The position numbers and the translations under genes were made by a program. Shown here piece by piece: positions 59,363 through 60,619 of a stretch of 64,000 nt of DNA. This DNA is from Eledone cirrhosa (lineage: Eukaryota), in the NCBI GenBank assembly GCA_964016885.1, contig OZ024755.1:10850001-10914000 (forward strand). Reading direction: 5' to 3'. The notes under the pieces were generated by a model. It worked only from the letters and a program-made list of their open reading frames with translations, did not search any database and was not told the DNA's origin. Position 1 is the stretch's first letter. Each line of letters opens with the position of its first letter.

Positions 59363-59500
59363 CAATGATATTAAATAAATGGAAATTATATTTATAAAAC
59401 CATATTAAATATAGTTTCCATTTATTTAATATCATTGAATATTATACTCCAGAAAAGTGTCGAGTGCTCTGAATCAGTTATAAACATTTATATTTGTTGA
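59363..59500 (+). mobile_element. Truncated fold-back copy of the hammerhead element (ribozyme lost)
   Basis: ~32-bp arms caatgatattaaataaatggaaa../..tttccatttatttaatatcattg followed by tactccagaaaagtgtcgagtgc..tcagttataaa. Confidence 0.7.
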
Positions 59501-59836
59501 ATTACCAATATCTCTTCCGCTTATACATATATATATATATAAACCAATGAAATTACTTCTCGAAAAACCTGGCATTTCGAGCCACTTTTTCCATATAAAA
59601 CAAGTAACATTCAGAGACCAACCAGATGTGAGAAAAACCACAGACCCTCCATCTCAACTCACCTTTTGAAAAGCAGAAGAACTGCGAAACCGGTAAAGGA
59701 ACCAAATAAATATATATATTTTTTAAAAAAATAAGACTCCAGTTGCATTTTCGATTTCATCTCTTTTTCTTTATATATATATATATATATATATACAATA
59801 TTAAATAAATGGAAACTATATCTATAAAACCATATT

Positions 59837-59902
59837 TATTTCATTATATATATTTCAGGGATAACATATTAACAATATGCTATGCCTTCCTCAGACAAAA
59901 TA
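59837..59902 (-). ncRNA. Type I hammerhead ribozyme (minus-strand arm)
   Basis: Mirror of 59960-60025 with one substitution in helix II. Confidence 0.75.
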
Positions 59903-59959
59903 CAATATAAACAGTTATATAAATGTCGAATCTATTTATCTATAAAACTGTTTATATTG

Positions 59960-60025
59960 TATTTTGTCTGAGGAAGGTATAGCATATTGTTAATATGTTA
60001 TCCCTGAAATATATATAATGAAATA
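59960..60025 (+). ncRNA. Type I hammerhead ribozyme
   Basis: Helix I tattttgt/atgaaata, CUGAGGA 59968-59974, helix II aggtatagcatatt/aatatgttatccct (13 of 14 pairs), GAAA 60006-60009, palindromic helix III AUAUAUAU, predicted cleavage after 60017. Confidence 0.8.
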
Positions 60026-60619
60026 AATATGGTTTTATAGATATAGTTTCCATTTATTTAATATTGTAAATATACTCCAAATATTTGTCGAGTGCTTTTA
60101 TATCAGTTATAAATATTTACTAGTTGTAACACAACAATTTTAAATATAACTTTCCATATATATATATATATATATATATATATATATATATATATATATA
60201 TATATATATATATATATATATATATATATATATATATATATATGTGTGTGTGTGTGTTTGTGTGTATACATATATAGAGATGGTTGCATATGTTTGTATC
60301 TATAAGTTCGAATATATATACATACATTGCACAATATATGAATTACGTTTTATAGATATCTATACATTTATGTGATGTGAACAAAGGACACAAATGAAAG
60401 GAGGAATGTGGCTAGAAATTGTAGAAATGTTACTGAAATTGTAAAACTGTAGAGCGCAGCTGAGGTTTACTGTAGGGTGCAGCTGAGGTTTAATGTCCAT
60501 CCAAAGGTGCGGAGTTTCCCCAATCACATCTCTATTTATTTTTCGCCCCCTTTCTCCCACTGCTTGTAAATACTTACCTTCAGTTACTGGGTGCAATATA
60601 GACGAGTGATAGAGAAGTT

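Follow-up and report, generated by a model that had tools for sequence, protein, structure and literature searches.

A palindrome with a hammerhead motif on each strand in Eledone cirrhosa is probably a 5′-truncated Hydra-clade Penelope-like insertion

A palindrome located in a 64,000-nt stretch of Eledone cirrhosa contig OZ024755.1 (hereafter the window, to which all positions refer unless a locus is named) is best read as a 5′-truncated insertion of a Hydra-clade Penelope-like element in (TA)n, with two 3′ ends lying back to back that were likely produced when both target strands primed copying at two RNA sites about 90 nt apart. We put the probability of this reading at roughly 0.8. The original prediction had described a double hammerhead palindrome and missed a known structure, in which the pLTR of a Penelope-like element is joined to a truncated second copy in inverted orientation; an inverted pLTR with a tail at one end is already a published architecture.

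The inverted arms of the palindrome occupy positions 59796–59921 and 59941–60066 and contain only two mismatches, at 59884/59978 and 59917/59945. The right arm extends past the palindrome to 60156, and (TA)n target sequence flanks the whole on both sides (59777–59795 on the left, 60157–60223 on the right). In terms of the element, the short-ended arm (59796–59921, minus strand) is its inverted, 5′-truncated 3′ end, and the long-ended arm (59923–60156, plus strand) is its last 234 nt, 98.7% identical to an intact copy in locus L032. The arms meet at an inversion junction at 59922–59923, where about one base matches neither of them. An assembly artefact was ruled out because the arm ends differ, obey a rule described below and are followed by (TA)n on both sides.

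A type I hammerhead motif was found on each strand. The plus-strand motif (59953–60031) comprises stem I with its 5′ strand at 59953–59967, CUGAGGA (59968–59974), a 14-pair helix II (59975–60005), GAAA (GAA at 60006–60008), the short helix III AUAUAUAU (60009–60016) and AUA. Its A17 lies at 60017, in agreement with the cut proposed earlier, so that cleavage is predicted at 60017/60018. The minus-strand motif lies in the short-ended arm, with the core at 59894–59888 and a predicted cut at 59845/59844. The CUGANGA and GAAA core, the NUH triplet and all three helices are thus present in the palindrome motif. A highly conserved stretch, partly used as a search anchor, leads from the predicted cut to the short terminus (60018–60066, plus strand). 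The last unambiguous base of this terminus is 60066; BLAST stretches it to reference position −82 through TA matches. The tail of about 90 nt (60067–60156, plus strand) belongs to the long-ended arm only and carries, 7 nt past the short terminus, a bulged hairpin (hairpin 1; 60074–60093, plus strand) composed of ACUC, an inner stem-loop, a 2-nt bulge and GAGU.

A dimeric hammerhead needs both motifs on one RNA strand, sharing helix III. The motifs of the palindrome lie on opposite strands, and therefore no dimer pairing can occur within one transcript, so that the term double hammerhead does not apply to it; dimer formation could apply to pLTR-ORF-pLTR source elements. A read-through RNA of the palindrome was predicted to fold as one long hairpin (−196.6 kcal/mol) that buries both motifs. 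Both points count against the idea that the palindrome itself is a selected, spreading unit, be it a double hammerhead, a MITE-like or a hairpin-RNA element. The near-perfect arms and the 24,653 genome-wide matches of a core-requiring hammerhead pattern (0 for the reversed control) would suit such a unit, but the junction coordinates vary from copy to copy, as expected if the inversion arises independently at each insertion (a point on which the original prediction was right), and a sister copy that lacks the hammerhead is laid out in the same way. We consider this explanation largely refuted and give it hardly any weight.

The first base of the sister copy is 59363, which places it 433 nt upstream of the palindrome, much as had been noted. 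Instead of a simple truncated copy it is itself two-armed, with a short arm at 59363–59406 (minus strand) and a long arm from 59406 to about 59520 (plus strand), and it represents a third, older subfamily; both its arms begin 3′ of the cut site. Another insertion of a different subfamily is located at 41710–42114 and has the opposite layout, the long arm being on the left (minus strand) and the short arm on the right (plus strand, core at 42016). The earlier view that structure is conserved between this element and the palindrome without sequence conservation proved overstated: the two are 73–74% identical in a gapped alignment, and over the first 10 pairs of helix II each strand differs at 3 of 10 positions (4 of 10 in the 5′ strand if a change confined to the right arm is counted). 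That change turns pair 4 of the palindrome copy into U·C. The mismatch reported at this pair is real, being C·C in 57 of 63 arms. The original prediction had the palindromic helix III as kept in both elements, but that of the 41710–42114 element, AUAUGUAU, is self-complementary only through G·U pairs.

A simple hammerhead descriptor matched the window four times and gave no match in any of 20 shuffled versions. The Rfam check suggested earlier failed: no hammerhead model of Rfam reached its gathering score in the window, and with E relaxed to 10 only miRNA-like and other weak matches appeared. This result weakens membership in an Rfam family but does not touch the reading of the motif. A separate type I hammerhead at 33268–33311 (plus strand; CUGACGA, a 4-pair helix II, a palindromic helix III and a 6-pair stem I) is unlike the palindrome's family in sequence and probably belongs to another Penelope-like element. 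The window also contains an open frame of 269 codons at 13818–14624 (plus strand), which we take to resemble the N-terminal endonuclease region of a LINE, and the output of a repeat finder was dominated by microsatellites.

The copies of the element in the window are 5′-truncated and contain no ORF. A search of the 3.0-Gb genome with the right arm gave 810 candidates, of which the 40 that were scored were 98–100% identical, and some matching copies read on into an intact ORF, uninterrupted in L031 and L032. Its product, counted from the first Met, is 737 aa long and has RWR at 37, DKT at 118, YRDD at 352, a CxCx5C linker (CNCRDRSKC) at 596, YVGST at 630, CxxC..E (CDLCAEE) at 694 and CxH (CKH) at 721; RWR is a K-to-R variant of the RWK motif and is also visible in Hydra-1_Crog. 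Since a Pfam search of the ORF gave no match, its assignment to a reverse transcriptase with a C-terminal GIY-YIG-type domain rests on these motifs. The nearest named protein, from Argonauta hians, shares 38% identity.

Hydra-clade elements are described as having a single ORF with DKT, RW[K/R], the CxCx5C linker, CxxC and CxH, a type I hammerhead near the 3′ end and (TA)n targeting (PMC8557442, Craig et al., 2021). Judged by its motifs and by comparison by eye with published proteins, the ORF found here appears to fit this description, and the 3′ type I hammerhead and the (TA)n target are likewise those of the Hydra elements with a C-terminal endonuclease (EN+). The element differs from that clade in several respects: (i) its unit is 3786 nt (about 3.8 kb) long and includes a 1.5-kb 3′ UTR, compared with <3 kb in the clade, a length that PMC8557442 qualifies with 'generally' and that was not treated as defining; (ii) its helix II has 10–14 pairs with an internal C·C mismatch, as against 3–7 pairs in the Hydra motifs listed there; (iii) its hammerhead sequence differs from that of Hydra-1_Obim; and (iv) about 25,000 motifs occur in this one genome. 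Along with the core-requiring matches given above, a 34-mer from the downstream part gave 23,116 matches genome-wide, and at least 126 pLTR-ORF junctions were found (3 in the control). An inverted 5′-truncated copy that places the motif on both strands is known from Penelope-13_HM (PMC8557442, supplement).

Arm ends were studied among the matches listed for the initial 29.4 Mb of contig C1, which gave 81 regions with 129 arms; the core-requiring list supplied 11 regions and a core-independent one the others. The arms stop at one of two fixed places about 90 nt apart, corresponding to 60066 (short) and 60156 (long) in the palindrome. (TA)n follows 65 of 71 short ends and 56 of 58 long ends (121 of 129 overall). 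Among 40 divergent pairs, 37 combined a short with a long end, two were short with short and one was long with long (p = 2e-8 against 50%); a further 49 of the 129 arms had no partner by the anchor test and are outside these pairs, several of them because the partner was too short. Three loci that looked like long with long were predicted to be partial tandems with an outer short end, and all three had one. Junctions between arms range from an overlap of a few bases to short inserts. The arms differ less within than between insertions (median of 1 versus 18 positions in 34 pairs), as the original prediction had it.

These observations are likely explained by two RNA priming events, one per target strand. 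Alternatively, a single nascent strand could fold back and prime itself to give the inverted arm, a route proposed for rotifer Penelope elements and argued from palindromes at the junctions (PMC3846280). The arms of a pair usually share private variants, which speaks for fold-back, as does a clustering of some junctions (L004, L005, L007, L010 and L025) within about 20 nt of each other in a short inverted-repeat stretch just 3′ of a pyrimidine-rich 3′ UTR repeat; this cluster may equally be a stall site or an effect of query selection. However, a strand that ends at the short terminus cannot template the 90-nt tail, and among 15 pairs resolved by eye the longer arm was short-ended in five and long-ended in 10. 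In this small sample, one arm is therefore not always a fold-back copy of the other. The arms of L251 (762–1176), moreover, come from two subfamilies and show eight differences. Taken together, this makes fold-back improbable as the source of the inverted arm. Two different templates for the two arms were also considered as a rule and rejected, as the arms mostly share a haplotype and only one of 34 pairs is clearly chimeric; in L251 two RNAs or a later conversion can account for this. An A/G difference between the arms in L035–L064 can be a recurrent mutation picked by the query.

Priming of both strands has a parallel in the PAc Poseidon element of Anolis, a lizard, whose Penelope-like protein cuts and extends both strands in vitro, starting at two internal sites that bound the tail (PMC11167929). 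The uncut RNA template and the AT-rich target are further likenesses. According to the same source, PAc starts at a site non-homologous to the target, whereas here both termini lie on AU runs that could pair with (TA)n, and both are located before the start codon. The Penelope insertion unit described in PMC3846280 and PMC8557442 likewise has an inverted truncated copy beside a direct one, often with a tail at one end. That tail is 30–40 nt long and not about 90 nt as here, where the rule of one short and one long end has also been counted and each end tied to a duplicated hairpin.

Each terminus lies on its short AU run, and 7–10 nt further on comes a hairpin in which RCUC is followed by an inner stem-loop, a bulge of 2 nt and GAGY. 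Of the 58 long arms, 49 have hairpin 1 with four outer and three inner pairs, and in part of the old subfamily its inner stem is CAG/CUG. The homologous hairpin 2 lies past the long terminus and is present only where a copy continues into the ORF; it was never found inside a long-ended arm. It carries GCUC/GAGC in 28 of 30 junction loci, one of the 30 being a chance match, and has a weaker inner stem of 1–2 pairs. Folding support for the hairpins is weak (z of −2.2, −1.6 and, for the sister copy, 0.0). By eye, a similar hairpin follows the hammerhead in the published Hydra-2_Amil and Hydra-2_Ajap consensi, in the latter directly past a TATATAT run; two copies precede the start codon in the Hydra-1_Ajap consensus, the outer pairs are changed in Hydra-1_Crog, and the hairpin was not clear in the Hydra-1_Obim consensus. 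The 3′ UTR of L032 contains, about 130 nt past the stop codon, a partial third copy, a 5′ half without its 3′ partner. A search of the open-access literature revealed no description of the duplicated hairpin and no count of short and long ends.

We then turn to the hammerhead itself. Of the 129 arms, 119 were alignable; in these, counted by eye, none of the 12 core columns had a variant common to at least four loci, compared with 23 of 51 other columns (Fisher p = 0.0024), and all four bases occur at position 7. The stretch 3′ of the cut is as invariant as the core, partly because it served as a search anchor. For helix II we analyzed 84 distinct motifs, that is, 85 (obtained with 16 of 139 arms set aside) minus three with deletions plus the two window copies, one of which was entered 8 nt off. 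Pairing in this helix amounts to 93.8%, and double-sided changes occur at pair 2 in 35 sequences, at pair 5 in 18 and at pair 6 in 24. The covariation score exceeded 500 of 500 shuffles and the number of covarying pairs did not stand above them (253 of 500); relatedness inflates such scores. In the same 84 motifs stem I and helix III showed one-sided changes and no double-sided change, and pair 8 of helix II was unpaired in 18.

A tree of 63 of the 70 long arms, built with helix II left out and the core left in, arranged the subfamilies as a ladder. Along it, pair 2 passes from A-U through G·U to G-C and pair 5 from G-C through G·U to A-U, while pair 6 alternates between U-A and C-G; pair 8 is broken in the youngest lineage (C·A, A·A, G·A) and then becomes G·U, as in the palindrome copy. 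Thus, helix II records a few real compensatory events and not a structure without sequence. Selection on the hammerhead, which the original prediction had proposed, appears to be supported at the level of the family; it would have acted on transposing source elements and not on copies such as the palindrome. Several loci depart from the common form. Short deletions remove part of helix II or the GAAA core in L176, L182, L189, L215, L233 and L238, and the deletion in L176 and L182 is identical and lies between two similar words. A subfamily represented by L274, L278, L280, L281 and L295–L299 has a U-to-C change at the second base past the cut and an A at the base of helix II, the core being otherwise intact.

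Folding predictions revealed a competitor of the active structure, in which the 5′ strand of stem I pairs over the GAAA core, because the word that pairs with this strand occurs twice, over the GAAA core and past the cut. The competing and the active fold have nearly the same predicted energy (median of −11.3 kcal/mol for the competing versus −11.2 kcal/mol for the active one; the competing fold was lower in 38 of 83 sequences), and the competing, inactive fold is the consensus fold. Such a balance would fit the reports that motifs of this type cleave poorly alone (PMC4209133) and that related motifs cleave only with the protein of the element (PMC11167929). Hence the motif might be hammerhead-shaped while catalytically silent or protein-dependent, kept for protein binding. 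This explanation draws on the same reports and on the predicted competing fold, as well as on a helix III of at most three AU pairs with a 2-nt loop. On the other hand, the fixation of all catalytic positions together with a free position 7 is the pattern expected of catalysis, and we regard a silent motif as rather unlikely. The minimal or dimer-type hammerheads of Penelope-like elements (Cervera and de la Peña, 2014; PMC4209133) resemble this motif in their long helix II and short palindromic helix III, in the variety of families within a genome and in opposite-strand pairs 100–700 bp apart; the predicted competing register of stem I distinguishes the palindrome's family from them.

Among about 23,000 copies there was no excess of starts at the predicted cut, where 75 flanks mismatched throughout, compared with 77 and 29 at control offsets; most of the 75 are one-base deletions. 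The template was therefore uncut or re-ligated. If hairpin 2 sets the long start, the template must also exceed one unit, since hairpin 2 belongs to the leader of the following unit. Thus, a template longer than one unit, circular or tandem, is likely.

We favor a circle, at roughly even odds. An origin of such a circle by cleavage followed by ligation would explain why the core is conserved though copies do not start at the cut, and circular templates made by hammerhead cleavage were already proposed in PMC4209133. A circle also explains partial tandems of any length and an array in L303 (3263–4335, minus strand), in which an internally deleted unit of 456 nt is repeated 2.4 times up to the long terminus. 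Each unit carries the hammerhead, both hairpins and the ORF start, and on either side of the array about 104 nt of neighboring DNA is duplicated in inverted orientation. Non-LTR retrozymes consist of head-to-tail units, each with a type I motif; the palindrome, being inverted and not tandem, is unlike them, but the L303 array does look like one.

The template could alternatively be an uncut, linear, multi-unit tandem master transcript of the same element, the hammerhead serving to trim read-through RNA or to control translation. It explains most of the same observations, and the absence of starts at the cut fits it as well as it fits a circle. The tandem transcript matches the model of PMC11167929, where hammerhead mutants are reported not to have affected insertion in vitro and no RNA-seq reads to have ended at the cut, and it would suit L301, which has two ORF starts 3715 nt apart, although the ends of this locus lie inside the ORF. 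Five insertions with partial tandems, in which the upstream, downstream and opposite repeats are near-identical, would look the same under a circle or a fresh tandem. Against a tandem transcript, the first 100 listed of the at least 126 pLTR-ORF junctions include a single same-strand pair separated by a full unit, with its ends inside the ORF; the tandem would presumably shrink with each round unless regenerated; and the hammerhead-bearing 456-nt repeats of L303 look like repeated rounds on a small circle. A tandem template is therefore less probable than a circle, and other routes are less probable still. The tandems of L300 and L301 have the appearance of duplications at the DNA level, and we did not use them in support of a circle.

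With a circular template, insertion could proceed as follows. Hammerhead cleavage in two pLTRs and subsequent ligation would yield the circle; the protein of the element, probably a dimer, would bind both hairpins, and each (TA)n primer end would anneal to the AU run immediately preceding its hairpin on the 5′ side. The two nicked target strands would then prime reverse transcription at two RNA sites about 90 nt apart, and both cDNAs would read through the uncut or re-ligated hammerhead, stop early and be joined at their ends. It can be hypothesized more generally that Hydra elements transpose from a circle made by the hammerhead, that a protein dimer on two hairpins, conserved from coral and sea cucumber to the element studied here, primes both strands of a (TA)n break, and that a register shift in stem I restrains the ribozyme until the protein refolds it. 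As a whole this is a tentative proposal, to which we assign somewhat less than even odds; if the circle and the dimer are real, every insertion would be an asymmetric two-armed product.

A palindrome with a hammerhead motif on each strand thus appears as an ordinary by-product of Penelope-like insertion. PMC8557442 poses as open questions what role these hammerheads play and how the inverted structures arise. The family described here is useful in this respect: intact young copies are numerous, the two ends are sharp, each has its own candidate RNA signal, and the counts show copies extending across the cut site. These features make two-strand priming and a circular template directly testable, and the family suggests a compact enzyme with (TA)n as its target.
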